Below are positions 5,517 through 37,349 of a stretch of 43,909 nt of DNA, in pieces. This stretch comes from Ardenticatenales bacterium. Its GTDB lineage: Bacteria; Chloroflexota; Anaerolineae; Promineifilales; UBA4811. Position 1 is the first letter of the stretch; every line of letters begins with the position of its first letter. The DNA lies in the NCBI GenBank assembly GCA_030593075.1, contig JAUVHW010000003.1:1-43909 (forward strand). Reading direction: 5' to 3'. The translations under genes were made by a program, and so were the position numbers. Below the pieces are notes generated by a model. It searched no databases. It saw nothing but the letters and a program-made list of their open reading frames with translations, and was not told the origin of the DNA.

Positions 5517-7568
5517 ATGCCAGCGGGAACAGACCCCATCACACTCTTCGCCGGAGGCGATGATGGCTACGGTGATGCGCGAGCGATAGGCCGCAACTCC
5601 TACGCCTGGGCGCTGAACATGGACTGCCGTGGCGTGGGCAAGGCGGCACCGTCTATCACGCCGACGCTTATTATCGCCCAGCTTAGCTCCCCAGCGCCAA
5701 CCATTATCGAGTGGGAGGATGCGAACGGTATCCCGATATTGCTGGTCGCGACTGGGGTGGTGAACTCTACCGGGCGCGTGTTGAAGATCGCGGATAACGC
5801 TGTAAGCACGGACAACTCGGACGCAGGGACGCGCTTCACGGACGCCGTGCTCTTTCGCCATGATGGCAGCGACCAGGACGCCGAGATGGCCTTCTTCTGT
5901 CGGGGCGGTGGCAGCGGCGACGACGTGTTGCGGGGGCGAACAAAGGCGGGTGCCTACAGCGAGAACGATGCAAAGGCAGATCACCTGGCCGTAGTGGGCG
6001 GGGATCTCTGGCGCAGCAAGGGGTATAGGGTATCAAAGCTGACGCTGGACACCGACCCCGACACTGAGAGCAACTGGGCGACGGTCACAACGCCAGTTGG
6101 CAGGCCGACTTATCCAGTGAACAAGATCCTGGACTTGGGCGGCTCGCCACTGATCCTCGCAGGCGACGGCATCTTCAAGTACAACACCGCTCCGAGCGCC
6201 AATCGCTTCGAGAACCAGACGCCATTCATTCACCGCGACAAAGACAACGGCAAGGCCGGGTTCATGGACGGGCGGGGGCGGGTTTACTACGACACGGACG
6301 AGGACTTCCTGGTCTTCACCTTCGGGGCGCTCTCGCAGCAGGGACCGGGGTTGCCCCGCTTCAACACTATTGACCGCAACACACCCTGGGGCCGCATCAG
6401 CGCTCTCACTGCGGACTCCCACCACGTCTATGCTGCGGTGGAACCCGGCGCTGTTAGGACGCAGCAGCTTGGGTTGACCGTTAAAAAGGATCTCAACGGT
6501 TCGTTCACCGATTACACGACGGAAACGACAGACCAGAAGTATAGCACCGAGGCGGACTTTACCGATATCGACTCACCGACTGCGGACTTCATCTACGTAG
6601 GTGCGGATGAGCCTTTCTGGGGTATCTATTTCCAACTAACTTCGGTTGCGACATCTACTACCGAGACGACTCTATTGGCGCAGTATTCTAGGGCGGCTAC
6701 TTTTACCACACTCCTGACGCCTCAGGATTCGACCGCCCGGCTGTTCCAAGACGGCCTGTTTTCTATTACGCCCGGCACGGACATCTTTGCCGGGGGCCTC
6801 TGGGAGAAGCAGACGGTGGACGGGGACAGCAAATACTGGATTCGCCTTACACCGACCGCCAGTACGCTTGCGGGCGTCAAGGCGTGGGCGATTCACATTG
6901 TCCCGTACCGCCCACCCATCGACCCGGACCTGTTTCCCTCGGTCGTAGCGAGAGCGCACTCAGGGGTTATGCCCAAGATACTCGTGGGCACATGGGTAGG
7001 TGAGCGCATCGTCTGGCAGGATACCTGGACCGTCGAGACGAGCAAGATTGAGGCGCTGATCATAGGCCGTGCGACAGCGACGAACAGCACCAGCCTTCGC
7101 ACGCTCTGGACCATCAGCCGTGAGGGCGTGACATACATACCTGTGGGTGGGGACATGCACCCCGCGCGCGCGACGTGGCCGCTGACGCACGGCGCTGCTG
7201 TGCCGCATGCGCTTATGTGCTCCTACCACGACTTCTTCTTGCCGGGGAACATAAAAAGCGTCCCCGGTAAAGTGGTGATACGCGGGCAGTGGCTCCAAGC
7301 TGACGATGAGTTCTGGTTCTACTACCGCTGGGACAACGAGCCGGAGTGGCGGAAGGCTGGCCCGTTCGACAGCGGCTTCCCGGTGGTGCTGAAGGGGCTG
7401 GAAGGCCAGGGCCTCATCCTGCACACGGCGTTTCAGCTAAAGGACGCAACGCGGGACGCGGTAGCCCCGCAAGTGGAGTACATCGGCATCGCGGCGGGCG
7501 AGTGGGAAGACCTGGGGCCGGCGGAAGAGGGCCTGGAGCAGGACATAGAATCGCCGCAGCTCAACTGA
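5517..7568 (+). CDS. Putative tail nozzle/stabilisation protein (beta-propeller, tubular B/gp10-like)
   Basis: 683 aa beta-rich protein directly after the adaptor, podovirus synteny. Confidence 0.55.
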   Translation: MPAGTDPITLFAGGDDGYGDARAIGRNSYAWALNMDCRGVGKAAPSITPTLIIAQLSSPAPTIIEWEDANGIPILLVATGVVNSTGRVLKIADNAVSTDNSDAGTRFTDAVLFRHDGSDQDAEMAFFCRGGGSGDDVLRGRTKAGAYSENDAKADHLAVVGGDLWRSKGYRVSKLTLDTDPDTESNWATVTTPVGRPTYPVNKILDLGGSPLILAGDGIFKYNTAPSANRFENQTPFIHRDKDNGKAGFMDGRGRVYYDTDEDFLVFTFGALSQQGPGLPRFNTIDRNTPWGRISALTADSHHVYAAVEPGAVRTQQLGLTVKKDLNGSFTDYTTETTDQKYSTEADFTDIDSPTADFIYVGADEPFWGIYFQLTSVATSTTETTLLAQYSRAATFTTLLTPQDSTARLFQDGLFSITPGTDIFAGGLWEKQTVDGDSKYWIRLTPTASTLAGVKAWAIHIVPYRPPIDPDLFPSVVARAHSGVMPKILVGTWVGERIVWQDTWTVETSKIEALIIGRATATNSTSLRTLWTISREGVTYIPVGGDMHPARATWPLTHGAAVPHALMCSYHDFFLPGNIKSVPGKVVIRGQWLQADDEFWFYYRWDNEPEWRKAGPFDSGFPVVLKGLEGQGLILHTAFQLKDATRDAVAPQVEYIGIAAGEWEDLGPAEEGLEQDIESPQLN

Positions 7569-7570
7569 TC

Positions 7571-8707
7571 ATGGCTACGCTAGAACAACTAGAAGCGCAG
7601 ATCGCCAGCCTACGAGAGGAAGTCACGCAGGCGAAGCAGATCACATCGCGCCACGGGGACGAGCACACAGGCGAGGGCCTCGACCCGTACAGCCCTCACG
7701 GCAGGAACACGCTACTCCCTATCATCGGTGAGCCGACATACGATGACGTGGAGGACGCCAACACCCTATTCCACTCGGCGGGCTGGTTCTCAGGCGGGGC
7801 TATCTCGGATGTGGGAGGTGGCAACATCACCATCGCTGCCGGTACGGGCGTGCTGCGCTCCGGGGCTACCGCCACAACCCAGCTCTTGTTCTTCGACTGG
7901 CTGGAACTAGCGACCCAGGCTATCACGGCCAACAGCATCCGCTACGTCGGCGTCGAGTACAACGGAGGGGCACCGCAGGCGACGATCCGCACGACTGACA
8001 ACTTCAACCACTTCACGGACTTCGAGCTGGCCATCGTCGTGAACGAGAGTGGAACCCTTCACATCCAGCAGCATGAACACCACGCGGGGGATACTTCTCA
8101 CACGACTATCGAGAGATTCCACCAGACGATGCACATTGAGCGCGACAACCAGGGCGGGGGCCTCATCCTCTCCGACTCTGCGGACGGCAACAACGACATC
8201 GCTGTGACCGCAGGCGCCCTCTGGATAGCGCTGGACAGGTTCGTCATCAGCGCGATAGATACCAGCGGCGCGAGCACCTTCGACGGGTACTCCTCGCAGG
8301 GCAAGGAAGACACGGGCATTGGGGCTTGGCCAAACACACTGTACGACAACGGCTCTGGCGGGACAGGCAGCCTGCAAACGATGGGGAACAACCGCTGGGC
8401 GAACCTCTGGTGGTACATGGAGACGGACGGCGATTTGGTGATGGTCTATGGCTCCAACCACTACGCCTCGGAGGCGCAGGCCGAGGGCGAGGCCCTGCCT
8501 ACTACCTTACCCAACCGCATTCAGGTTCATGGCCTGCTCATCGGGCGGTTCATCTTCCAGAAGGGCGAGGACGCCTCGCAGGTACTGACCGCGTTCACGG
8601 AGACGTTCACTGTCGCAGGTGTCACGGATCACGGCACCCTGGTTGGACTGCCGGACAATGACCACCCGCGGTATCAAACGTGGGCCTTCTTCATGGGGGG
8701 TGTGTGA
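7571..8707 (+). CDS. Putative tail fibre/needle protein
   Basis: Likely start ATG 7571 (MATLEQLEAQIASL coiled coil); DHGTLVGLPDNDHPRY motif; AFFMG end. Confidence 0.6.
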   Translation: MATLEQLEAQIASLREEVTQAKQITSRHGDEHTGEGLDPYSPHGRNTLLPIIGEPTYDDVEDANTLFHSAGWFSGGAISDVGGGNITIAAGTGVLRSGATATTQLLFFDWLELATQAITANSIRYVGVEYNGGAPQATIRTTDNFNHFTDFELAIVVNESGTLHIQQHEHHAGDTSHTTIERFHQTMHIERDNQGGGLILSDSADGNNDIAVTAGALWIALDRFVISAIDTSGASTFDGYSSQGKEDTGIGAWPNTLYDNGSGGTGSLQTMGNNRWANLWWYMETDGDLVMVYGSNHYASEAQAEGEALPTTLPNRIQVHGLLIGRFIFQKGEDASQVLTAFTETFTVAGVTDHGTLVGLPDNDHPRYQTWAFFMGGV

Positions 8708-9030: not shown

Positions 9031-9792
9031 ATGTCCTGGAAGTTCTACACCTCAGATGGGGAAGTCAAGGGCGTTGGTGCTGACGGCCCTACTGGTCCCA
9101 CGGGAGCCACGGGTGCTCAGGGCACTTCAGGCACGGCAGGCACAGGGCCAACTGGACCGACGGGAGCGACCGGACCGACGGGGGCGCAAGGCACATCTGG
9201 TACGGCAGGTACAGGTCCGACAGGTCCGACAGGTCCACAGGGAACTGCGGGAGCCCAAGGTACGGCGGGAGCTCAGGGTTCTCAGGGCACTGCTGGAGCC
9301 CAGGGCACCGCTGGTGCTACAGGAGCGCAAGGCCCTACTGGGCCAACGGGAGCGACGGGGGGGACAACTGCTGGTCCGACGGGCCCCACTGGGGCGCAGG
9401 GAACTGCTGGGAGCCAGGGCACGGCCGGGGCCACCGGTCCAGGGCCGCAGGTAATAGAGTTCGTCATCGACGGCGGCGGGTCAGTCATCGCAACCGGCAT
9501 CAAGGGCGATCTCGAAGTCCCCGGCGCTACTATCGCTGAGGCCCGGCTGCTGGCCGACCAGACCGGCTCCATCGTGGTGGACATCTGGAAGGACACCTAC
9601 GCCAATTACCCGCCCACCAACGCGGACACCATCACCGCCGCAGCGCCGCCCACCATCGCAAGCGGCGTCAAGGACAGCGACGTAACCCTCACTGGCTGGA
9701 CAACGACTCTCACCGCAGAGGACATCTTGAGGTTTAACGTGGACTCCTGCACGACGATCACACGCTGCACGGTGGCGCTGAAGGTGTCGTGA
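9031..9792 (+). CDS. Collagen-like (Gly-X-Y) fibre protein with C-terminal globular domain
   Basis: About 40 [12 protein letters not shown] triplets with short interruptions. Confidence 0.9.
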
Positions 9793-11381
9793 TGAAGGGC
9801 GCAGCATACTACGATGAGGTCTACCGGGGCGAGTACGCGAGGGACGAAGGGCGCGTCCAGTTCGTCGCCGACCTCTGCCGGGGCAAGGTGCTGGACGTTG
9901 GTTGCGGTGACGGCATCCTGGCGACGCGCTGGGGCGGGGCCTATATGGGCGTGGACTTCTCGCAGGAGGCGATCAACAAAGCGCGTAACGGTGGCGATAA
10001 CCGCTTCGTGGTGAGGGACTTCCTGGACGCCCGCCCGCTGTCCGATACAACATGGGACACCATCGTTGTCGGCGAGGTGCTGGAGCATCTGAGCAAGACG
10101 GCCTGCCGGAAGCTGCTCAAGAAGGTCAAGGCTGCGCTCGCACCCGGAGGGCAGGTCATCGCCACCGTGCCCAACGGGGCATCCATCCCTGACCCGTCGC
10201 ACGTCCGAACCTTTGAGAACGGATCACTCGAAGAGGCCATCAAGGGCATCGGCCCAACGTGCGGCCACGCCTACTCCGACCGCTACGCCATCGCCACGGC
10301 TCATGCGGGCGGGCGCCCGAAGCTCTCCTGCGTCCTCATCGTCAAGAACGAGGAGGAGCTGCTGGGCAAGTGCCTAGAGTCCATGAAGGATCTCTGGGAT
10401 GAGCTGGTCATCGTGGACACCGGCTCGACCGATGGCACCGTGGAGATCGCTGAGTCCTACGGTGCGCGGATGGGGCGCTTCGCCTGGCGTGACGACTTCG
10501 GCGCGGCGCGGCGCTACGCCGAGGCGCTGTGTGCCGGCGAGTACGTCTACTGGCAGGACGCGGACGAGGTGCTGCTGGAGGGCCACGACATCATCCGCGA
10601 GATCGTAGAGGCGGGCGCGCAGGACGGGATCGCCCCATACCTCATCATGCGCCGTGACAGCGAAGGGCGTGCGGTGGACGGCTTTGTGCGCCAGGAGATG
10701 CTACACAAGAACGATGGGTCTTGGAAGTGGCATGGAGCCGCGCACAACTGGCTGAGCGGGACGGGTCGCACGGAAGACAGGCGCATCGTTATCGAGCACC
10801 TTGCGCGGCCCAGCGGTGACAGGCCGAACCACACCGACATCTTCGAGGCGCTTCGGGCGAACTTCACAGAGGACGCCACGATGGAGGAGCGCAACCTGTT
10901 CTACCTGATGCGTGAGCACCGCGACAAGGGACATTATCGAGAGGCCATCGCGCTTGTCGCGCTGATGATGCAGACGCCGCCGGCCTGGCCCCTCCAGCGC
11001 TCACGGGCCTGCATCATAGCCGGAGACTGCTGGAGGGCGCTGGGCAATGCTGAGAACGCGGCTCAGGCGTACCACAAGGCACTCGTGGAGTGCGCCGACT
11101 GGGCCGAGCCGTACTTCTGTCTCGGGCGGCTGCGCTATGAGCAGCAGAGGTGGCGTGAGGGAGCCGCGTGGCTGCACGCCTCGACCGGCTTCGAGCCGAC
11201 ATCCTACTTCACCGACCTGACGATCTACGACTGGCTCCGCTACGACCTCCTGGCCGTGTGCCTGTCCAAGCTGGGCCGGAACGAAGAGGCGCGGCTATGG
11301 GGTGCGAAGGCGCTGGCGGCACGGCCCGACGATGAGCACCTGAAGACGAACATGGTCTACTACCAGGAGGCTGCGGGCTGA
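9789..11381 (+). CDS. SAM-methyltransferase + GT2 glycosyltransferase + TPR fusion
   Basis: VLDVGCGDG; [29 protein letters not shown]; helical TPR-like C-terminus. Confidence 0.88.
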
Positions 11382-12351: not shown

Positions 12352-12922
12352 GGTCTGCATCTCTATCCCGACGAAGGGCTCCGTCCGAGCTGAGACGATG
12401 GCCTGGACGGTGAGGGCGTACACCCAACTAGCGCCCAATGTTGAGGTGCATATCGTTCAGGAGAACATCCCGCTGGACGCGGCGCGGAACGTGCAGGCCG
12501 AGCGTTTCCTGGCCTCTAAGTGTAGCCACCTGTTCCTGCTGGACGCCGATTGCAACCCGCAGGACGAGACGATCCAGAAGCTGCTCGCTTGGGAACTGCC
12601 GTTTATCTCCGCGCCCCATCCGACGCGAAAGGGGGCCGACCGGATCATCATGGCGCTGGTGCGCAATAGCGAGGGCTACACGCCCCACCTGCCCGCGTTG
12701 GGGCTACAGATGGTAGACGCGGTGGGCGGCTCCGGCATCCTCATGGAGCGGCGGGTGCTGGAATGCTACGGCCCGCCGTGGTTCCGCACCCTCTACGATG
12801 AGCGGGGTGGGCTGGACAAGACTGAGGACTTCTGGGTGTGCGAGCGAGCCAAGGAGCACGGCTTCCAGGTGTGGGCCGACTTCAGCTTGGTGCAGCAGCA
12901 CATCCGGGAGGTGCCGGTCTAG
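12338..12922 (+). CDS. GT-A fold glycosyltransferase-like protein
   Basis: ARN..AERFL..HLFLLDAD; VDAVGGSGILM; EDFWVC motif. Confidence 0.8.
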   Translation: MQPPRVCISIPTKGSVRAETMAWTVRAYTQLAPNVEVHIVQENIPLDAARNVQAERFLASKCSHLFLLDADCNPQDETIQKLLAWELPFISAPHPTRKGADRIIMALVRNSEGYTPHLPALGLQMVDAVGGSGILMERRVLECYGPPWFRTLYDERGGLDKTEDFWVCERAKEHGFQVWADFSLVQQHIREVPV

Positions 12923-13605
12923 TGACGAATGTAATCTCGGCAGCCGACCCAGATGCAGGGGACAGGCATTATCTGCACTCAGGGTTCTCAGCTACGATTA
13001 CGACCAGCTACGCTCCTGGCTATACCCAAGTTGAGGGAATCACCTGGGATGGCAGCGACGTACTGGGCGTGTCAACTGCTACCAACAAGCACCACAAGCA
13101 CTCAGGGTTCTCGTCCACTATTACTAGTAGCTACGCGAGCCCCAATAGTTCCCCGACTGGTATTACCTGGGACGACGCCAACGTACTGAGCGCAGACGAC
13201 ACCTTCCTGGCCGATAAGCATTTCAAGCACTCAGGGTTTTCGAACACCATTGACGCTAGCTATAGTTCCCCGGCGGGTACCCCGAATGGCATCACCTGGG
13301 ACGATTCGGATGATGTACTGAGCGCGGATGCCGTAGCCGACAAGCACTATCAGCACTCCGGCTTCTCGGCGACGATTAGCAGTAGCTATGCCTCTCCATC
13401 AAGCATCCCTGAGGGAATCACGTGGGACAGCAGCGACGTACTAAGTGCAGACGATAACGCCGACAAGCACTATCAGCACTCCGGCTTCTCGGCGACGATT
13501 AGCAGTAGCTATGCCTCCCAGCAGTTTCCAAGAGGTATCACCTGGGACGGGCGTGGGGTCGCTGCACCGCCGGGCTTCATTCACGTGCAGGGCACGGTCA
13601 TCTAG
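12922..13605 (+). CDS. Repeat protein, five ~41-43 aa units (beta-propeller-like), probable tail/receptor-binding protein
   Basis: GTG at 12922 overlaps previous TAG; unit DVLSAD..DKHY.HSGFS.TI.SSYASP..P.GITWD. Confidence 0.75.
   Translation: MTNVISAADPDAGDRHYLHSGFSATITTSYAPGYTQVEGITWDGSDVLGVSTATNKHHKHSGFSSTITSSYASPNSSPTGITWDDANVLSADDTFLADKHFKHSGFSNTIDASYSSPAGTPNGITWDDSDDVLSADAVADKHYQHSGFSATISSSYASPSSIPEGITWDSSDVLSADDNADKHYQHSGFSATISSSYASQQFPRGITWDGRGVAAPPGFIHVQGTVI
13336..13517 (+). repeat. Identical 59-bp direct repeat (13336-13394, 13459-13517), 123-bp period
   Basis: gccgacaagcactatcagcactccggcttctcggcgacgattagcagtagctatgcctc occurs twice. Confidence 0.95.
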
Positions 13606-15110: not shown

Positions 15111-15139
15111 TTGACGCGGGGTACCCTGTGGGATATCCT
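15111..15139 (+). promoter_or_regulatory. Sigma70-type early promoter, leaderless, with palindromes
   Basis: TTGACG-N17-TATCCT; ATG at 15146; GGGTACCC 15119-15126 and GGATATCC 15131-15138. Confidence 0.7.
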
Positions 15140-16411: not shown

Positions 16412-16618
16412 ATGGGTGAGGTAATTATTGTCGGTGCCATCTGTGGGAACTGCGGGGTGGCAACCGCTCTCCGCATCACCAGGGAAGCTGAACCGCAGCA
16501 ATTCCCCGTGGTTGTTCCTGTTGAGTGGGCACGGCAAGCGCTGGAGTGTCGGCGGTGCGACGGCCGTGTCCGCATCGCCACCGAGCCGGTAGCCCCCACG
16601 CCAGCGGAGGCGAGCTGA
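16412..16618 (+). CDS. Small Zn-ribbon protein
   Basis: CGNC..CRRC. Confidence 0.6.
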   Translation: MGEVIIVGAICGNCGVATALRITREAEPQQFPVVVPVEWARQALECRRCDGRVRIATEPVAPTPAEAS

Positions 16619-17055
16619 TGAGAACGGCCCAAGACGTGCGGTTCTGGTCGAAGGTGGCGAAGGGCACAACCGATGAGTGCTGGCCTTGGCAAGGCTACAC
16701 CGTCAAGGGTTACGGGTACTTCTCATTGGGCGGCTACGCCAAGGTAAGAGCGCACCGCTACAGCTATGAGCAGTTGGTGGGGCCCATCCTTGAAGGGCTA
16801 GAGATAGATCACCTTTGTCGGGTGCCAGTCTGTGTAAACCCCGCCCACCTAGAAGCCGTGACTCATCGCGAAAACGTGCTACGCGGTAATAGCCCGAGTG
16901 CGTTGGCCTCAAAGGTCACTCATTGCCCGCAGGGGCATCCATATGACGAAGTGAATACCCTGTTCCGGACTTTGGGCTGGCGGGAGTGTCGCATCTGTCG
17001 TCGCGGGCGGCGGCGAGAGTGGTGGCAACGCCGAAAGGAGAAGCTGGTCGCATGA
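16618..17055 (+). CDS. HNH endonuclease
   Basis: RFWSKV..CWPW..AHR..IDHLCR..CVNPAHL..THCPQGH..CRIC. Confidence 0.9.
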   Translation: MRTAQDVRFWSKVAKGTTDECWPWQGYTVKGYGYFSLGGYAKVRAHRYSYEQLVGPILEGLEIDHLCRVPVCVNPAHLEAVTHRENVLRGNSPSALASKVTHCPQGHPYDEVNTLFRTLGWRECRICRRGRRREWWQRRKEKLVA

Positions 17056-17246
17056 CCGAGCTAGAGCCGACGCTGAAGGAGTTACTAGAGCGCGAGCTGA
17101 GGGGCGTCTTTGGAAGCCACCCGATCCCCAGTTCCGCTCCCCTGTCACGGCGACGGGGGCTAGAGCAGAAGTACGCCGAGCTGTACCAGCGGTTGGTGGC
17201 CATTGGGGCCAAGCCACAACTGAGAAGGAGGTATCGGCATGCCTAG
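17052..17246 (+). CDS. Hypothetical protein
   Basis: ATGA-coupled. Confidence 0.5.
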   Translation: MTELEPTLKELLERELRGVFGSHPIPSSAPLSRRRGLEQKYAELYQRLVAIGAKPQLRRRYRHA

Positions 17247-17406
17247 CTGCCGGCACTGGTGGATCATCGCCACCCCGAACGGCGTCACCAGCCGCGGGAT
17301 CTGCAAGCGATGCGGGGCAGAGCGCGACTACCCCAACGCCGGCCGGGACCTGTCCCCGCGCAACCGGCCCTCACAGGTCGAGCGGGTGCTGGAGGTGGCA
17401 CCATGA
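17239..17406 (+). CDS. 55-aa Zn-binding protein (CxHWWII..PNG..CKRCG)
   Basis: Strong SD AAGGAGG; MPSCRHWWIIATPNGVTSRGICKRCGAERDYPN; not in ORF track. Confidence 0.75.
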   Translation: MPSCRHWWIIATPNGVTSRGICKRCGAERDYPNAGRDLSPRNRPSQVERVLEVAP

Positions 17407-17414
17407 CGTTCCTC

Positions 17415-17967
17415 AGAGATCCCGTAGGTCGGAGGCTTGCCTCCTGTTTACCTGCGTGGCCTGCGGGATCTCTCGGTTGCGTCAAGGATGACGCCTCCGC
17501 AGTCTGGCCCCCCGGCGGGTCTCCCCCGCCACCAGTCCCCGCTGGGGGGTCGCTTGGGACATGGACGGGAGAGGACATGCGATGAGAGCCGTTGTCGTGC
17601 AGGACCCAGCGAAGCCGCGGCAATGTTCCTGCCCACCGATAAGGGGAGAGATACCCCACCGCGCTCATCGTCCTCTCCCGCCCGCGCCTCAGGCTTGGGA
17701 CTTAGACGCCGGGGAACAACACGAGAGGCCACCTGCCCCCGTGCACACGGCGGGCTTACTCGTGCCCCGGCGTCTGCGTCTCAGGCTCAGAGCGGAGGGC
17801 GTGATGGGGTTAGCTGATGGGTTCCCCTCGTTCGGCCAGCCTACACACGCTCTCCGCCCTGCGCCCGAAGGCTCGGGCCAGAGCGTGGGAGGAGGGTACA
17901 GGTATGCGCAGGCGGTGAAACCCGCCAGAGACAGCAGAAGGCCCGGCACCACTCGGGCGTCGGGCCT
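17415..17967 (+). ncRNA. Candidate large structured RNA or sRNA cluster
   Basis: At least nine helices, including 16, 14, 12, 11 and 11 bp stems, several with G-U wobbles on the + strand. Confidence 0.6.
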
Positions 17968-18008
17968 CCACATCCACTACCTAGGAGATTAGCAGATGGA
18001 GACTGAGA

Positions 18009-18095
18009 ATGGAACCCCCCGCGTACCTGATGCCCATCGTGTTCGCCTTCCTCGGGTGGGCGTTCGTAATGCGCGACTTCGTGCGAGGGCGCTAG
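18009..18095 (+). CDS. 28-aa hydrophobic peptide (alternative: ORF 17996-18217)
   Basis: SD GGAG; MEPPAYLMPIVFAFLGWAFVMRDFVRGR. Confidence 0.35.
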   Translation: MEPPAYLMPIVFAFLGWAFVMRDFVRGR

Positions 18096-18209
18096 GCCTC
18101 CTCGCCGCCACTGCCGCCGGAGTCCACCTGGGCTTCCTGGGCGGTGGCCCGCGCAGGCGCAACCGTGAGGACTGCGGCGAGGGGCGGCTGGAAGATGACG
18201 TGCTGTTCG

Positions 18210-18404
18210 ATGCCTAGCCGCAAGGCCCAGCGCGACGCAGAACTCGTGCGGCAGGGTGCCGAGCGGCGGCTGGCGAAGAAGCCGAAGGCCTGCGAGTGCG
18301 GGCATGGGCGCGGGGCGCACGCCATTCTTACCGCTAAGTGCCAAAGTGGGCGAGGTCGCCGCACTCTCTGCGACTGCCCCGGCTACCAGGAGGCGAAGTC
18401 ATGA
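18210..18404 (+). CDS. Small Cys/His-rich protein
   Basis: CECGH....H..C..CDC. Confidence 0.6.
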   Translation: MPSRKAQRDAELVRQGAERRLAKKPKACECGHGRGAHAILTAKCQSGRGRRTLCDCPGYQEAKS

Positions 18405-18976
18405 CGAACGGTGAAGCGACGCCAACATACACCAAGCGCACAGAAGGCGGCTCCTGTGCCGACGGCCCGGCCACCGGCTTGGCCTCGCGCAGGGACGGCA
18501 GAGATGGGCGTACCGTGCTGCTCGTTGCAGAGATGGTGGGCACCGCCAGCCAGGGAGATCGCGGCAAGGTGGGCAACGAGCTACTCGACCACCTCGACAC
18601 CCTGCCGCAGCCTGCGGTGGACGTGGACGCGCTGAAACAGGTGCAGCGAGCCTTTGCTGCCGCAACGGAAGAGGGCATCACTGAGAAGGGGCGGCTGGAG
18701 AATGTCTGCCTAGTGCTGGCAGAGATGCGCTGCGACCTAGAAGCCCAGCAGCCCCCGGCCCCTGGCGTGGTGGAGGCGCTGGAGAATATCTACAAGAAGG
18801 CTGAGATGTGGGCGTCACCTTGGGGCACGTTGCCGAGCGCTTGGGGGAGCGTGCGTGACTGGGCTGACGAAGCACTGGCCGCCCTCCGCCCCGCCCAGGG
18901 TGCCAGCCTGCAACGCTCTAGTTGTCCGGGCTGTGGGCACCCGGAGTGCGACGCAGAGCCGAAGGGTGCCGAGTGA
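18401..18976 (+). CDS. Hypothetical protein
   Basis: SD GGAGG, ATGA-coupled. Confidence 0.6.
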   Translation: MTNGEATPTYTKRTEGGSCADGPATGLASRRDGRDGRTVLLVAEMVGTASQGDRGKVGNELLDHLDTLPQPAVDVDALKQVQRAFAAATEEGITEKGRLENVCLVLAEMRCDLEAQQPPAPGVVEALENIYKKAEMWASPWGTLPSAWGSVRDWADEALAALRPAQGASLQRSSCPGCGHPECDAEPKGAE

Positions 18977-31400: not shown

Positions 31401-31401
31401 C

Positions 31402-31515
31402 GTGGAGATCTCGGTGTTCCAGCTGTTCGGGCTACTGGCGGCTGGTGCCCTGATAGGCTGGGGGGCCAACGACCTGGTGACTTGGTGGATAGCCAAGGAA
31501 CTGAGTAATAAGTAA
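31402..31515 (+). CDS. Small membrane peptide (37 aa)
   Basis: GTG start, single TM. Confidence 0.4.
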   Translation: MEISVFQLFGLLAAGALIGWGANDLVTWWIAKELSNK

Positions 31516-31614
31516 CCATAAGATACATAGTGCGATCATCCCCAGACTCGCTTGTGACGTATAGCCATAGCCGATGGCCCAGAGAGGGTATCCCCCATCA
31601 GCCTTATCAATGCA

Positions 31615-31649
31615 CCAGGGGGGTTGCCGAAGCAACAAGGCCCCCCTGG
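31615..31649. repeat. Inverted repeat in the non-coding gap after terS
   Basis: CCAGGGGGG...CCCCCCTGG around TTGC-CGAA-GCAA. Confidence 0.7.
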
Positions 31650-31849
31650 GGTGTGCTAACAGAAGGTGGGGGTACGGCGGCTGTGGCTGAGTTTGGTCCC
31701 GGCTCGCTAGATGTAGAGTGTGGGACTTACTTCCAGCGGAATATCCGCCAACCGTAAAAAGGGGATTCGCCTTGACCGTGGGTATATGCTACACTGAGAG
31801 CGGCAGCACCGTAAGTTCGGTCTGCCGCGTGACACCAGGAGAAAACCTG

Positions 31850-32299
31850 ATGTGCTCTAAGTGTACCCACCATACGCGAACAGTGGAAGAGCGGTTCTGG
31901 GAAAAAGTCGGACCCAGTGGTACTGCGGACTGCTGGCCCTGGACGGGGGGTGTAAACAGCCAGGGCTACAGCGCCCTCCGCGTCGGTAAGATGAAGGTCT
32001 ATGCCCACCGCTGGATCTACGCGCACTGGTTCGGGTCCATTCCTGCGGGGCTCACAATCGACCACCTGTGCCGAAAGCGCACCTGCGTCAATCCTACCCA
32101 CATGGAGGTTGTGACTCGGGGCGAGAACGTCTTGCGCGGAATCAGTATTTTCGCCCAGAATGCCCGGAAAACCCACTGCCTCCGGGGGCACCCATTTGAC
32201 GAAGCCAATACGCGCCTGGTCAGGAAAGGCCGGCAATGTCGCATCTGCGCAGAGAGGGCTTGGCGGAAGCGTTATGCTGCCACGAAGGCGTTGCCCTAA
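31850..32299 (+). CDS. HNH endonuclease (paralogue of 16618-17055)
   Basis: RFWEKV..CWPW..AHR..IDHLCR..CVNP.H..THCLRGH..CRIC; extended -10 TGCTACACT at 31787-31795. Confidence 0.9.
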   Translation: MCSKCTHHTRTVEERFWEKVGPSGTADCWPWTGGVNSQGYSALRVGKMKVYAHRWIYAHWFGSIPAGLTIDHLCRKRTCVNPTHMEVVTRGENVLRGISIFAQNARKTHCLRGHPFDEANTRLVRKGRQCRICAERAWRKRYAATKALP

Positions 32300-32550: not shown

Positions 32551-32785
32551 GCAGATCACCAACAGCCCGCCGCAGTTCTGGGCGAAGTTTCGGAGGCGGC
32601 GACTGCGTTCCTCAGAGTACTACCAAGATGCGGGCCTGCGGCTCGTCAACCGCTGGCGATGGCGCAACGACTGGCCTGCAGTAGAGGCTATCCGCGTGTA
32701 CGTGGAGCCAGATGGCCTCGGTGGCGGCGAGGTGGATGTCGCCTGCCGCGTCTGGGGCAAGAAGTTCCTGAGCCATGCTAGCTAG
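32543..32785 (+). CDS. Hypothetical protein
   Basis: Coupled ORF. Confidence 0.55.
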   Translation: MPEQITNSPPQFWAKFRRRRLRSSEYYQDAGLRLVNRWRWRNDWPAVEAIRVYVEPDGLGGGEVDVACRVWGKKFLSHAS

Positions 32786-33029
32786 GCTGCGCCGAGCGTG
32801 GGCTGCGTTCCGGGCGGAGCCGCCTTCGGCGCAGGGCTGGCTAGCACGCCACCAGAACGAAGTCTACGGGGCATACGCGGGGAAGTGGGTGGCAATTGGC
32901 CGCTTCGGCGTTGTTGCTGCGTCGGTGGACTTCGATGAGATCTATCGGCGGTCGAAGCGGGCCGGGCTTCGTGATCCGGTGGTGTTCAAGGTACCTACAC
33001 AAGACGGCCTACGGCGACGCCATGCCTAG
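32775..33029 (+). CDS. DUF5678-like protein
   Basis: YAGKWVAI....VVA.S.D..E......G...PVVFKVP. Confidence 0.6.
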   Translation: MLARLRRAWAAFRAEPPSAQGWLARHQNEVYGAYAGKWVAIGRFGVVAASVDFDEIYRRSKRAGLRDPVVFKVPTQDGLRRRHA

Positions 33030-33246
33030 GCGCTACCGTCGCTGGCCGATGTGGGCGCTGAACTTGTACCCGGAGCTGGAAGATACGCCGGTACCTCGTA
33101 GCCTCAAACCGCGCGCCCGGACTGAGCTGTGGGAGGGGCGGCAAATCATCCTCGATGCGCAACTATTCATCTGGGACGGCAAGAAGTGGGACGAATTGCT
33201 CGCAAGGCCGCTGGAAACGCCCCGTGAGTACGAGGGCTTCCCATGA
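33022..33246 (+). CDS. Hypothetical protein
   Basis: Coupled to terL (ATGA). Confidence 0.55.
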   Translation: MPRRYRRWPMWALNLYPELEDTPVPRSLKPRARTELWEGRQIILDAQLFIWDGKKWDELLARPLETPREYEGFP

Positions 33247-34760
33247 CCGCCTTCAAGCGCCTGTCCAAGGACGCGCAGGACCTCGTGCTGATGGCCCGGC
33301 AGCACTTCGGCGTCTACTGCCTGGTGGCGCAGGACACCGACATGAAACACATTGCTGACGGCAAGGCCGCTCTCACGAAGCACCACGAGGTCATGGCGGA
33401 GGCGCTGGTGGACGACAAGCTCGGCCACACGCTCATCCTAGCGCCCCGCGGCAGCGCGAAGACGACGCTTGTGCAGTATTGGTTGGAGTGGAAGCTGGGG
33501 CGGGCTAAGGAGGAGATGGGTGACGGCTGGGAAAACAGGTTCCGCGCCATCTACATCTCAGCGACTGCAGCGCAGGCGTATAAGGTGTCGAACGCCATCA
33601 AGGCTACGATCGAGCACAACGAGTGGTACAAGCTGATCTTTCCTCAGGTGAAGCAGGACAAGAGCAAATGGGCTGAGCCGGAGTGGAAGGTGAAAGGGAA
33701 CCGCATCAAGGACTCGACGTTTCTGGCTGTGGGGCGCAATGGGCCGGTGCTGGGCGCCCGCGGGACTATCGTGGTGCTGGACGATATTGTGGACCAGGAC
33801 GTGCGGAAGTCCCAGAAGGAGCGCGACGACACGATCTTCTGGCTCGACAACACCGTGATGAAGGTGATGGTACCCGGCGGTCGGTTCGTCATGGCCGCGA
33901 CGCGCTGGTACGAGGACGACCCGCCGCAGTGGGCGATGGATCGCGAGTGGCACACCGTTCTGCTTAAGGCGATCACTGTGGCGGAAGGCACGGAGGAGGA
34001 GGTGTCCTTCTGGCCCGAGCGGTTCCCGATGCGGGACTTGCTCAAGGAGCAGAAGGCGGCGCCGATGTCCTTCGCGCTCCAGATGCAGAACGAGATCGTG
34101 CCCTACGCGGGCATCGTCTTCCAGCGCGAGTGGTACAGCAACCGCTTCGACCACGTGCCGCCACCAGAGGAGATCCGCCATGTCTTCGCTACTTGGGATA
34201 CAGCAGGAACTCTTACGGGCCGGTCGTACACTGTCGGCCTTGTCGTCGTTGTTACGCGAGAATGGGATTACTACATCCTCCATCAGTTTCGTGGCAAAGT
34301 GGAGTACCCAGACCTCAAAAGAGTCATCCGTGAAACGGCTAAGCGCTGGCGAGTTTCAGCGTCGGTTATCGAGGCTAAAGCCACCGGCCAGCCCGTCCTC
34401 CAGGAGCTAGCCCAGGAGGGCCTGCGCGTGGTGCCCATCCTGCCCCCAGGACAGCGCGGCGGGCCGGGGCACTTCGAATGGGTGGAGCAGGTAACGATCC
34501 CCTGCGAGGAGCGGCGGGTGTGGCTCCCCAGCTCGGACTTCCTGCGCCGGCACAACGTCGAGGACTGGACCGATACGTTTATCAATGAAATGTTGGCGTA
34601 TCCCGAAGGATCGACGGACGATATCGTGGTGGCGCTCACCCAGCTTCTGTTCCACGTCGAGCGCGAGAAGCCGCAGTGGGACGCGGAGGACGCCTACGCC
34701 CTGGAGCCGCCCATGCGCTACGCAACGCTGCCGAGCGGCGAGAAGAAGGTGGCGGTTTGA
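33243..34760 (+). CDS. terL: Terminase large subunit
   Basis: Walker A APRGSAKTT, Walker B IVVLDD, ATRW, nuclease ATWDTA..IEAK..DDIV. Confidence 0.95.
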   Translation: MTAFKRLSKDAQDLVLMARQHFGVYCLVAQDTDMKHIADGKAALTKHHEVMAEALVDDKLGHTLILAPRGSAKTTLVQYWLEWKLGRAKEEMGDGWENRFRAIYISATAAQAYKVSNAIKATIEHNEWYKLIFPQVKQDKSKWAEPEWKVKGNRIKDSTFLAVGRNGPVLGARGTIVVLDDIVDQDVRKSQKERDDTIFWLDNTVMKVMVPGGRFVMAATRWYEDDPPQWAMDREWHTVLLKAITVAEGTEEEVSFWPERFPMRDLLKEQKAAPMSFALQMQNEIVPYAGIVFQREWYSNRFDHVPPPEEIRHVFATWDTAGTLTGRSYTVGLVVVVTREWDYYILHQFRGKVEYPDLKRVIRETAKRWRVSASVIEAKATGQPVLQELAQEGLRVVPILPPGQRGGPGHFEWVEQVTIPCEERRVWLPSSDFLRRHNVEDWTDTFINEMLAYPEGSTDDIVVALTQLLFHVEREKPQWDAEDAYALEPPMRYATLPSGEKKVAV

Positions 34761-35068: not shown

Positions 35069-35192
35069 CCACGAGCCGCGCTGCTGGCGCTGTCGCCGCA
35101 AGCTGGCCGAGTCCCTGACGCGCCCGTGGGAGATCGTCTGCCAGCGCTGCAAGGCCACGAACAATAGCGAGCCCATCCCCGCCGTGGTATAA
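35061..35192 (+). CDS. Mu Com-like Zn-ribbon protein (43 aa)
   Basis: RCWRCRRKLAE..EIVCQRCKATN; SD GGAGG; not in ORF track. Confidence 0.7.
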   Translation: MTDHEPRCWRCRRKLAESLTRPWEIVCQRCKATNNSEPIPAVV

Positions 35193-35193
35193 T
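35185..35193 (+). promoter_or_regulatory. Extended -10 promoter
   Basis: TG-G-TATAAT overlapping the Com-like stop codon. Confidence 0.65.
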
Positions 35194-35199
35194 GGGGGC

Positions 35200-35316
35200 A
35201 CAGTGGTGCGCTTCGGTTAGTAGCCTTCGGGAAGAACGCCGATCGCACGCGTTAGCACCGGGAAGCCTAGGGAACATCCGGTGCGGGGCCACTGGGCTAC
35301 GGCCTGGTGGCCCTTC
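35200..35316 (+). ncRNA. Candidate small structured RNA
   Basis: Three arms; C(UUCG)G and C(UACG)G loops; AGUA/GAA internal loop; own promoter. Confidence 0.6.
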
Positions 35317-35335
35317 GGCGTCACGCCACCCCGAC

Positions 35336-35366
35336 TTGACAAAGACGTAGAAGGTGTGCTTAGAAT
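35336..35366 (+). promoter_or_regulatory. Possible portal-operon promoter
   Basis: TTGACA-N19-TAGAAT (long spacer). Confidence 0.45.
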
Positions 35367-35385
35367 AGCCTAGCTAAGTACACTT

Positions 35386-35437
35386 TCGTGCCCTCGCCGC
35401 ATCGTGGCCCCCACGCGGCACTGGGGGCTTTGTCTTT
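35386..35437 (+). promoter_or_regulatory. Portal leader with alternative hairpins masking the SD / terminator-like
   Basis: GCCCCCA/TGGGGGC + TTTGTCTTT versus GCCGC..GTGG/CCAC.GCGGC. Confidence 0.55.
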
Positions 35438-37349
35438 GCCCGAAGAACCGCTGGACGCAGGAGAACTGCTTAAGCTCGTCTCCGCGCTGGAGAACGACCA
35501 GAGCTTCCGCACCTGGCAGGACCGCTACATCCCCAACTGGCGCGCGCTAAGGTGGCGCACAGAGCCCGTCCAGATCGCGGGCATCTCCGAGAAGCTGGAG
35601 TATCGCAGCCCCGCCATCGCCTCCAACGTAGACCGGTACCGGAACCGGGAGAGGGCGGCGAAGATCCGCATCCTCGTTGCCGCCAAGGACGAGGACCAGC
35701 ATTCGGTCTCCGCAGCCCAGGCGGTCGAGAACTTCGCCTACGCACTCTACGAGGACTTCCGCAGGCAGGGCGACGCCGACGACCGCGCCATCGACTACCA
35801 GGTAGCGGACGGCCTGGGACCGCGCAACATCGCCTGGGCGGACAATGTGCTGGACAAGCTATTCGCTAAGACGCAGCAGATTGACGACATCAAAGAGCGC
35901 GTAACCGCCGTCTTTAAGAGCGGCTTCGACGGCAACCCGTTCAAACTCCGCGTCCCCGACCCGCAGGTCCTCTACTGGGACAAGGACATGTCCTTGGTGG
36001 CGGAGGTGGGACTGGTGCGCATCTCGACGCTCAGGGCCGCGTATGAGGAGGGCCTGAGCCCCGGCGAGCTACACGACTTCAACGAGATCGTCTCCGATGT
36101 CGAGGAGTCTCACAGGCGGCTGCGCCCCCACCACGAGGGTCACGAGCAGCACGACCGCACGGTGCAGTTCTACCACGTTGAGACGAACGGCTGGGTGTAC
36201 GAAGCGATCCTCAACAAAGCGCAGAAGCCCAACCCCCAGCCGCTGATCCTGCGCCGGCACCCGAACCCCATCGGGCGGCCTCGATACGCATTCGCCGCGG
36301 GGCACAAGACATCGGGCCGCGACCCGTGGAAGTCGCACCGGCCTCTGGTCGCCGACCTCTACCCCATCGTCCAGCTCCTGAACATCACTCGCACCCTGCT
36401 CATGACGGGCGGACTCCAGACAGGACGGCCCATGTATCAGGAAGTGGCCGTGGGCGCTGCTGCCGACGACTTCATGACCATTCTCTCCAAGCCTGCCGAC
36501 ACGCGAAACGTCGTCTCTATCGACACGTCCAAGGGCGACTTCCTGCCGAAGCCCCGCAAGGGCCACCGCTGGGAGCCGGTCCCCATCCCCGACACTTCGA
36601 TCCTGGAGAAGGCCGATATCCGCCTGGAGGCCGACCTGGCGAACTACGGGTTCCCGGCCATCCTCTCGCCCGACGCCGCCATCGACGCCACTTCCGGTTA
36701 CGACCGCTCCCGCCAGATGGAGGGCGCGCAGGACTTTCTGGAGCCGCCTCTGGCCAACAACGCCGAGGCGTGGAAGGAACTCTTCCTTATGTGCTTCGAC
36801 GCCATCAAGGAGATGGGCGTCCCCGTCACCATCCGCACGCTGCTCCGCGCCCAGGGTGAGGACTCGCGCATCCAGGATGTGGTTACGATCAGGCCGGAGG
36901 ACATCGATGATGTTCACTTGGAGGTGCGCTTCGAGAGCATCCCGGCCACCGTGCAGTTCGCGATGGACGAGGCGGCCCGCCGCGACGTAGAGGGTGGCTG
37001 GATGTCGCGCAGTCGGTACATGGGCACGAAGTACGATGACCCGGAGCGTGAGGCGGAGCAGATCGCGCTTGACGATATGCGGCTTGCCGGGCAGCAGATG
37101 GCGAAGGACGCCGCGATCTCGTTCATCCAGGTGATGATCCCCCAGGATATGCAGCAAGTGGCTCAGGAACTGGGCGTCACTCTCCCGGTAGGCGGGCAGG
37201 CTGGCAACGGGCAGAACCCTGAGCGTCCGCCCGAAGGGGCGGCGCCGGGCGTCGGTTCGCCACTGGTGCCACCGTTGCAGGGACAACCTGGCGAGGCTGT
37301 GCCGCAGGGCACTCCGGCCACGGGCGGCGGAAGCGTGGGTGTATCGTAA
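35436..37349 (+). CDS. Portal protein (head-tail connector); likely TTG start at 35436
   Basis: ~637 aa helical protein after terL; ATSGY motif; Q/P/G-rich tail typical of podovirus portals. Confidence 0.75.
   Translation: MPEEPLDAGELLKLVSALENDQSFRTWQDRYIPNWRALRWRTEPVQIAGISEKLEYRSPAIASNVDRYRNRERAAKIRILVAAKDEDQHSVSAAQAVENFAYALYEDFRRQGDADDRAIDYQVADGLGPRNIAWADNVLDKLFAKTQQIDDIKERVTAVFKSGFDGNPFKLRVPDPQVLYWDKDMSLVAEVGLVRISTLRAAYEEGLSPGELHDFNEIVSDVEESHRRLRPHHEGHEQHDRTVQFYHVETNGWVYEAILNKAQKPNPQPLILRRHPNPIGRPRYAFAAGHKTSGRDPWKSHRPLVADLYPIVQLLNITRTLLMTGGLQTGRPMYQEVAVGAAADDFMTILSKPADTRNVVSIDTSKGDFLPKPRKGHRWEPVPIPDTSILEKADIRLEADLANYGFPAILSPDAAIDATSGYDRSRQMEGAQDFLEPPLANNAEAWKELFLMCFDAIKEMGVPVTIRTLLRAQGEDSRIQDVVTIRPEDIDDVHLEVRFESIPATVQFAMDEAARRDVEGGWMSRSRYMGTKYDDPEREAEQIALDDMRLAGQQMAKDAAISFIQVMIPQDMQQVAQELGVTLPVGGQAGNGQNPERPPEGAAPGVGSPLVPPLQGQPGEAVPQGTPATGGGSVGVS

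Follow-up and report, generated by a model that had tools for sequence, protein, structure and literature searches.

To our knowledge, few structured non-coding RNAs of phages have been recognised, and most of the large ones are without a known function. In the T7-like phages, the sites between the early genes at which the transcripts are processed by RNase III are single hairpins. An idealised substrate of the Escherichia coli enzyme is given as a helix of 22 base pairs (bp), or about two turns (PMC3867540). Processive antiterminator RNAs include put of HK022 and EAR of Bacillus subtilis, which are the smaller ones, and canT of Tn916, described as a cis-acting region of 452 nucleotides (nt) with multiple predicted stem-loops (PMC11658703). 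The present analysis concerns positions 17407-17995 of the + strand of a 43,909-base stretch of DNA (the window), which makes up contig C295 in full, within a 3.86-Mb metagenome-assembled genome (MAG). It is probable that this segment is a real + strand non-coding RNA element of a small undescribed phage family and that the family lives, as the origin of its known sequences suggests, in uncultivated phages of marine sediments and cold seeps.

An earlier note on this DNA had listed ten helices within 17415-17967 and all of them were found in place. Their 92 positions comprise 85 Watson-Crick pairs and seven G-U pairs with no mismatch, and 91 of the 92 pairs recur in the RNAfold optimum of 17400-17995, in which 434 of the 596 bases (73%) are paired. 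The ATG at 17582, said to be buried in a stem, does lie inside the helix 17581-86/17664-69. Folding energies were each compared with those of 100 dinucleotide shuffles. The + strand of 17415-17967 folds better than its shuffles, at -307.1 kcal/mol against -259.1 +/- 7.8 kcal/mol (z -6.15), and none of the 100 was as stable; for 17400-17995 the minimum free energy is -318.9 kcal/mol on the + strand (z -6.65) and -307.6 kcal/mol on the - strand (z -4.42). In a structure scan of the whole contig, using 300-nt segments with the GC content corrected by regression, the four segments tiling 17401-18000 account for four of the top seven on the + strand and rank first to fourth on the - strand. No other part of the 44-kb phage contig is as structured.

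Homologues were sought by scanning metagenome contigs with the zinc-ribbon-like protein of 55 amino acids (aa) that is encoded immediately upstream, which yielded 14 loci. Two of these, L004 and L002, contain parts of the structured stretch, with order, orientation and operon position unchanged; the other 12 show no similarity and no comparably structured stretch within the available flank. The L004 element folds at -273.2 kcal/mol on the + strand (z -6.71) and -249.0 kcal/mol on the - strand (z -3.40), while the z scores for L002 are -4.82 and -2.90, respectively. The L004 and L002 sequences are 96% identical over 161 nt. The architecture of the element was read side by side from the window, L004 and L002, and its parts, with the flanking genes and the two homologous elements, are as follows.

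17239-17406, + strand: upstream gene, 55-aa Cys-rich zinc-ribbon-like protein, with relatives in the 14 metagenome loci; GC content at third codon positions (GC3) 0.88
17415-17473, + strand: H1, a 16-bp hairpin enclosing a small hairpin with a CUUG loop
17479-17494, + strand: H2, a hairpin of 6 bp; its tetraloop is AGGA (GGGA in L004), and its C-G and A-U closing pairs are conserved
17506-17551, + strand: H3, a hairpin of 14 bp, or 16 bp in L004; its C-rich loop holds the conserved word GCCACCAG
17552-17694, + strand: arm A, a 25-nt lower stem (GCUUGGGAC... / ...CUCAGGC) around a branched interior
17693-17787, + strand: arm B, the second tandem copy of the arm
17784-17865, + strand: H5, a long irregular hairpin present in all three homologues
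17863-17926, + strand: small hairpins specific to the window (17863-78 and 17911-26) and a linker
17939-17967, + strand: H7, a hairpin of 9 bp (11-12 bp in L004) that includes a conserved G-U pair
17983-17998, + strand: AGGAG ribosome-binding site and ATG at 17996, conserved with L004
18009-18095, + strand: downstream gene, 28-aa hydrophobic peptide (MEPPAYL...); GC3 0.90
L004:3795-4296: element of L004, on a 35-kb contig
L002:2230-2586: element of L002, on a 2.6-kb contig, cut by the contig end

The conserved core consists of H1 (in position only), H2, H3, H5 and H7, with zero, one or two arms between H3 and H5. H1 directly follows the upstream stop, which shares bases with an ATG (ATGA) at the element's 5' edge, and L004 and L002 have a hairpin of at least 15 bp there whose sequence is unrelated to that of the window. 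The arms, about 95-140 nt each, occur as two tandem copies in the window, one in L004 and none in L002. Arms A and B are paralogues, as seen in the repeats D1, D3, I2 and I3 (for arm A, the inverted repeat I3 and the direct repeats D1 and D3); the lower stem of the unit starts with GCUUGGGAC and ends with GUCUCAGGC, and the stems of the arms are conserved whereas their loops are not. In the linker 17863-17926, only the short single-stranded word ACAGCAG is common with L004 and L002. H7 stands 16-19 nt 5' of the next ribosome-binding site, and the AGGAG and ATG found there start an 88-aa gene in L004 that the window does not have. Thus, of the nearly continuous 550-nt structure described in the earlier note, all the helices exist in the window, but the homologues have neither the multibranch closure 17681-87/17883-89 nor that of the interior 17566-17680; the conserved form is simpler, a linear string of hairpins resembling beads on a string and not one globular fold.

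At the 5' edge, two copies of the word AUGACG are present, one where the upstream stop and the start overlap and the other in the 3' strand of H2 (17401-17410 with 17478-17487), and GCGUCA (17479-84) can pair with either copy (inverted repeat I1; H2 strands 17479-17484/17489-17494). An alternative fold through GCGUCA that would bury the upstream stop is possible. The AUGA overlap is also covered in L002, where H1 is extended by 10 bp.

Covariation was examined on block alignments of the three sequences, with the paralogous copies used for the arms and with a shuffle control that ignores relatedness. H2 was counted on an ungapped slice, since MAFFT had shifted it; the whole-region MAFFT alignment (A1) was left unused, as were the H2 parts of A2, A5 and A8, all of them being misaligned. 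The earlier note had proposed a test for covariation, and pairing is kept through compensatory changes in the two homologues. H5 has 29 pairs, nine of them changed on both sides, with 98.9% of the cells paired; none of 500 shuffles equalled this and controls with slid pairings gave at most two such pairs. The three arm copies have 30 pairs, ten changed on both sides, with 92.2% of the cells paired (0/500 shuffles; slid controls at most four), and within their lower stem of 24 pairs six are changed on both sides and two wobble pairs are invariant in all copies. Two of the 15 aligned pairs of H3 are changed on both sides and one G-U pair is invariant in all three sequences. In H2, three of the six pairs are changed on both sides between the window and L004/L002 with all cells paired (18/18, 100%), so that half of the stem pairs covary while the loop and the two closing pairs stay fixed. 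H7 could be compared between the window and L004 only; none of its 15 predicted pairs is changed (the stem itself has 9-12 bp) and the stem, being identical in both, is therefore uninformative on covariation. The structure conservation index is 0.83 for H5, at pairwise identities of 46-85%, and 0.94 for H3. Because L004 and L002 are nearly identical, the covariation consists mostly of a single contrast, the window against L004/L002, together with the paralogous arms.

The non-Watson-Crick positions bear on the strand on which the element is read. When the conserved helices were counted with their 1x1 interior positions filled in, 32 cells were of the G-U type and nine of the A-C type, which agrees with the prevalence of G-U on the + strand claimed in the earlier note, although these helices were predicted on the + strand and the count is biased accordingly. 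In a strand-blind fold with G-U pairs forbidden, a less biased comparison, the 1x1 single mismatches are eight of the G-U type against three of the A-C type. The lower z scores of the + strand and the G-U excess favour an RNA read from that strand; single-stranded DNA of the same strand is also possible.

Variation within the population was read from contigs of four DNA sequencing runs mapped on 16900-18500. Eleven variant places fall within the element, a number that leaves aside two indels (17987 and 17993) in the spacer that precedes the ATG. Seven of the eleven are unpaired in the optimum, against 73% of the bases paired, and two of the four paired ones are C>T changes opposite a G, which preserve a wobble pair on the + strand. 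In two of the runs, 17469-17553 (H2-H3) recurs letter for letter behind a different H1 strand and leads directly into the start of an H5-like strand, an arm-free form like that of L002. Sequencing depth peaks over the zinc-ribbon gene and over 17926-18087 (H7, the ribosome-binding site and the peptide gene). The zinc-ribbon and the H7-peptide modules are common to several genotypes and the arms belong almost exclusively to this phage.

The stretch is non-coding. The open reading frames (ORFs) that cross the element are given below.

17403-17585, + strand: 60-codon frame starting at the ATGA overlap with the upstream gene
17437-17817, + strand: second crossing frame
17561-17992, + strand: third crossing frame, with an ATG also at 17582, in which the gene caller called a 136-aa ORF (P0004)

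The first and the third (from its ATG at 17582) had been described as not protein-like, which was borne out by the flat codon-position GC of the crossing ORFs, by the lack of protein relatives and by frames that are not kept in the homologues. The GC contents at the three codon positions are 0.66/0.70/0.62, 0.69/0.72/0.61 and 0.72/0.58/0.69 (0.58-0.72 overall), while the GC3 of the flanking genes is 0.88 (17239-17406), 0.90 (18009-18095) and 0.77 (18195-18404), and the only phase with raised GC in 17630-17840 is broken by seven stops. A 143-aa translation from the window retrieved only itself among 149 candidates from 5.8 billion proteins, no Pfam or PHROG family was matched by the crossing ORFs and a 132-aa ORF over the element of L004 had no protein relative among 39 candidates. 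Of the 19 internal gaps in alignments A6 and A9, 16 have a length that is not divisible by three, and direct reading places the conserved nucleotide blocks in different frames in the window and L004. For example, the block TGGGACATGGACGGGAG is read ..GGG ACA TGG.. in the 60-codon ORF of the window and TGG GAC ATG.. in a 62-codon ORF of L004, and the H3 and H7 blocks are likewise frame-shifted on both strands. Since the blocks are differently framed, the gaps are mostly not in triplets and the L004 ORF is without relatives, the homologues do not conserve protein frames in place of structure, a check that the earlier note had named.

A search of the whole window against Rfam 15 (including GOLLD, ROOL, HEARO, group I and II introns, RNase P, 6S, Y RNA and ribozymes) gave no match at the gathering score, and at E-values up to 10 the region 17200-18200 gave only six chance matches of hairpin type, mostly to models of microRNA precursors, with scores of 16-20 bits where the gathering scores are 40-100. 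ARAGORN found no tRNA or tmRNA gene in the window, and the stretch thus stays, as the earlier reading had it, outside the known RNA classes scanned. DNA searches returned no relative in the phage collection, only its own locus in the MAG, and nothing in 60 related genomes or in 400 genomes of the phylum; the flanking proteins and the terminase had no confirmed relative among the viral contigs of IMG/VR. Pattern scans of the viral contigs gave no match for H5 or H7 and one for H3, a chance match on inspection, and 16 matches of the H7 pattern in genome contigs were dismissed as chance, none being similar by BLASTN. The element was found neither in Rfam nor in any collection searched, except for the two sediment contigs and the strain variants in the seep and sediment runs. 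It is a new, small and undescribed family of a kind already known, structured RNA within a phage operon. No description in print was found, and as literature searches could not find an unnamed element by its sequence, no claim is made on this point.

Three other identities were considered and rejected. A self-splicing intron does not fit, since the upstream gene differs between the loci (zinc-ribbon in the window, HTH_3 in L004, a 119-aa type in L002), as does the downstream gene. A miniature inverted-repeat transposable element or other repeated palindromic mobile element was rejected, as the stretch occurs at one place only in the MAG; the arm-end motif was found only at the two arms, further matches with three mismatches being within chance expectation, and the arm-free site in L002 shows no clean excision footprint. 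A CsrA/RsmA sponge was rejected because only the H2 loop presents a conserved exposed GGA in all three homologues; the other GGA words of the element are mostly paired or not conserved.

The contig represents all or a large part of the genome of a tailed phage. All of its sizeable genes lie on the + strand; they include the large terminase (33243-34760, + strand), tail-fibre-like, endolysin-like and replication-initiator-like proteins, two HNH_3 endonucleases, a Dam methylase and a YspA/SLOG protein. The contig shows no exact terminal repeat. A tblastn search with the terminase matched 767 of 50,697 phage records, all at less than 60% identity, and the identity was 23-25% in the 15 best of these, less than 26% to any deposited phage among the matches listed; the phage appears to be an isolated one, of a lineage with almost no characterised relatives. 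The sequencing runs that contain the stretch are labelled as cold-seep and sediment metagenomes. The GC contents of the contig and of the rest of the MAG are equal (63.1 and 63.3%). Comparisons of host taxonomy through RpoB and a protein atlas were uninformative, and a simple k-mer scan of the MAG for CRISPR arrays was negative, on which account the idea of an RNA anti-CRISPR was dropped.

The element sits in a block of small genes (15.2-26 kb) that follows a lysis-like gene and looks like an early region. A single sigma-70-like site was found between 14500 and 20500, at 15111-15139, with the small-gene block after it, and a search for repeated promoter-like words across the contig gave none of relevance. 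No promoter-like or terminator-like site was found at the edges of the element in the window or in L004, from which its co-transcription with the operon is inferred. As judged from the sequence, it is probably transcribed within a one-strand operon of small early-type genes and may act in cis as part of the operon transcript rather than as a free RNA. The earlier proposal of a large non-coding RNA (ncRNA) or processed array of small RNAs in the early operon thus holds for the non-coding and structured character and the early-type region, but not for a single 550-nt multibranch fold, which is not conserved; release as a free ncRNA or as small RNAs would be conjecture. The L004 neighbourhood is syntenic with that of the window yet mosaic: two extra genes, one of them HTH_3, lie between the zinc-ribbon gene and the element, and the 88-aa gene lies between the element and the hydrophobic peptide gene, which is conserved there (34 aa, L004:4558-4662, GC3 0.89). 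The upstream 55-aa protein matches no Pfam or PHROG family.

A tentative best guess for the function is that of a cis-acting intercistronic module for processing and stability. The helices of at least two turns, in the arms and H5, would be cut by the double-strand-specific RNase III of the host; H1-H3 would be left as a protective 3' end on the upstream message and H7 as a protective 5' hairpin on the downstream one, with its ribosome-binding site open, and the variable number of arms would tune how fully the two messages are uncoupled. The lower stems of the arms, with 24 pairs, and the main helix of H5, with 20 pairs and extensions, come close to the helix length of the idealised RNase III substrate, and the MAG, which may not be the host, encodes RNase III. 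H7 and its ribosome-binding site are linked to different downstream genes in the relatives, which is what a 5' protective hairpin on a processed message would look like.

Several points weigh against a processing module, or more broadly against a + strand RNA. Five to seven hairpins follow in a row, uninterrupted by any gene, an array that greatly exceeds in length the single-hairpin sites of T7, and H2 (6 bp), H3 (14-16 bp) and H7 (9-12 bp) are too short as RNase III substrates. The conserved loops of these three hairpins suggest a specific binding partner. Cleavage by RNase III is not predictable from sequence, and its occurrence here is put forward as a proposal. The homologues are three only, two of them the near-identical L004 and L002, and the strand count is open to the bias described above. 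No RNA data are among the listed runs that contain the stretch, and two metatranscriptomes of the same study are nearly without its words, a result uninformative either way.

The rival explanations differ in whether the stretch acts as protein-coding sequence, as DNA or as RNA. That the ORFs 17403-17585 and 17561/17582-17992 are real, fast-evolving genes for small proteins, the structure being incidental to GC-rich coding for Pro, Gly and Arg, is extremely improbable: all three homologues do have at their 5' edge an AGGAG-type site and an ATG that overlaps the upstream stop (ATGA), and a gene caller predicted the 136-aa ORF, but the flat codon-position GC, the absence of relatives in 5.8 billion proteins, the blocks in different frames, the 16 of 19 non-triplet gaps and ORF lengths of 60, 62 and more than 117 aa across the three homologues all oppose it. 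Palindromes acting in DNA, as a recombination hot spot that shuffles cassettes, as a single-strand structure or as an origin, would account for the better-than-shuffled folding of the - strand as well (z -4.42, -3.40 and -2.90), for arms that duplicate and delete and for a mosaic neighbourhood in which 17469-17553 and the H7 module appear in other contexts and genes are gained or lost on both sides. This is nevertheless very unlikely, as the + strand is consistently the more stable one (in L004 by 24 kcal/mol, z -6.71 vs -3.40), the G-U-type cells outnumber the A-C-type ones 32 to 9 with several wobble pairs invariant, the place has no iterons, no AT-rich stretch and no turning point in cumulative GC skew, and the replication initiator gene is 9 kb away.

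Among the RNA-level alternatives, a cis-acting processive antiterminator, in which the nascent element would bind RNA polymerase and lead to read-through of downstream terminators, shares much with what is observed, namely a non-coding multi-hairpin segment within an operon, with no promoter or terminator of its own, on a 44-kb contig whose genes all lie on one strand and whose later intergenic gaps hold stable hairpins (for example, 32780-32845 and 35185-35395); the conserved H2 and H3 loops suggest a specific partner and canT offers a precedent in size and look (PMC11658703). It is rated unlikely, given that no Rfam family was matched even at E-values up to 10, that downstream terminator-like sites are not enriched (11 vs 10.6 expected from shuffles), that the single promoter-like site upstream (15111-15139) is about 2.2 kb away from the element and that the variable number of arms and the conserved linkage of H7 with the ribosome-binding site would be left unexplained. 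A stable ncRNA released from the transcript might instead act in trans by binding or titrating a host protein, whether of the CsrA type, a defence protein or nuclease that binds double-stranded RNA, or another. CsrA-family proteins are described as binding GGA motifs (PMC4894983), H2 shows GGA in its tetraloop and keeps the loop although three of the six stem pairs covary, two CsrA homologues are encoded by the MAG (C239:2520-2681 and C352:1604-1762) and large phage-borne ncRNAs are known in GOLLD and ROOL (10.1101/2024.12.08.627333, PMC5737381). However, a sponge should carry many GGA-in-loop hairpins and the element conserves one, GOLLD and ROOL did not match, no conserved junctions of tertiary appearance were seen, and co-binning with the MAG, at equal GC, does not prove that the MAG is the host; action in trans is quite unlikely. 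A broader idea takes the specific partner as its centre, in place of a passive double-stranded RNA: the invariant H2-H3 pair, with its GGA tetraloop and C-rich loop, and H5 would load onto the transcribing RNA polymerase or capture a host RNA-binding protein such as CsrA, reprogramming the expression of the whole one-strand phage genome, and the duplicable arms would serve as a spacer that can be tuned. Such a new class of regulatory RNA in phages is doubtful; if real, it would bring a canT/put-like or sponge-like function to a lineage and habitat where none is known.

Several further observations were made in the neighbourhood of the element and elsewhere on the contig. The ORF 17996-18217 (73 aa), which overlaps the peptide gene, has a weaker codon bias, yet its amino acid sequence is similar to a frame of L004. 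The gene immediately 5' of the element in L004 (L004:3533-3802) is of the Cro/CI-type HTH_3 family and ends in the junction word GCGCAUCAUGA, a word found also ahead of the element in L002 and at the junction of the two genes that come before in L004. The two free-standing HNH_3 endonuclease genes (16525-17055 and 31718-32299) have a GC3 bias that is apparently below that of their neighbours, as they failed the GC3 filter, and this fits recently acquired genes of homing type. Very stable hairpins also occur in other intergenic gaps (32780-32845, 35185-35395 and 31600-31660), and the + strand segments 32701-33000, 35201-35500 and 31401-31900 rank among the most structured of the contig; these hairpins have no sequence in common with the element. 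At 9056-9454, 3' of a tail-fibre-like gene (7346-8707), nine-base periodic repeats (families D1, D4 and D10) encode collagen-like Gly-X-Y triplets in a 132-aa ORF. Five tandem units of about 123-129 nt at 12962-13514 (families D2, D3, D7 and D15), within the ORF 12838-13605, are probably a repeated protein domain of a structural gene. An ORF of 530 aa at 9789-11381 combines a methyltransferase-like N-terminal part with a glycosyltransferase-like part, according to its PHROG matches.

The modular design of the element, with fixed core hairpins and zero to two arms, can be easily dissected by deletion. Should it control processing, read-through or an RNA-binding protein of the host, it would show how expression is timed in phages with long one-strand operons that infect high-GC sediment bacteria, and a family of this kind, if true, would be an addition to the covariance-model libraries for the annotation of sediment viromes.

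Comparison with the known systems brings out likeness and difference in each case. With the CsrB/RsmZ sponges the element has in common the GGA in the H2 loop, and the MAG has two CsrA genes, but the sponges carry many GGA loops and the element conserves one. Like GOLLD and ROOL, which are reported as large phage-borne RNAs with no known function (10.1101/2024.12.08.627333, PMC5737381), it is several hundred nt long and carried by a phage; it differs in matching no Rfam family, in having no tRNA genes nearby and in forming a linear string of hairpins in place of a multi-junction fold. It resembles put, EAR and canT as a non-coding structured RNA in the long operon of a mobile element, and differs from them in the lack of an Rfam match (EAR included, if in the library), in the lack of an excess of downstream terminators and in the hosts and elements concerned. 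With the RNase III hairpins of the T7-like phages it shares an intercistronic, non-coding position in a one-strand early operon, irregular helices of about two turns, lower-stem sequences conserved among the copies and, as proposed, hairpins left on the message ends after cleavage; what sets it apart is the succession of five to seven hairpins over 350-600 nt, among which H2, H3 and H7 are short and have conserved loops.

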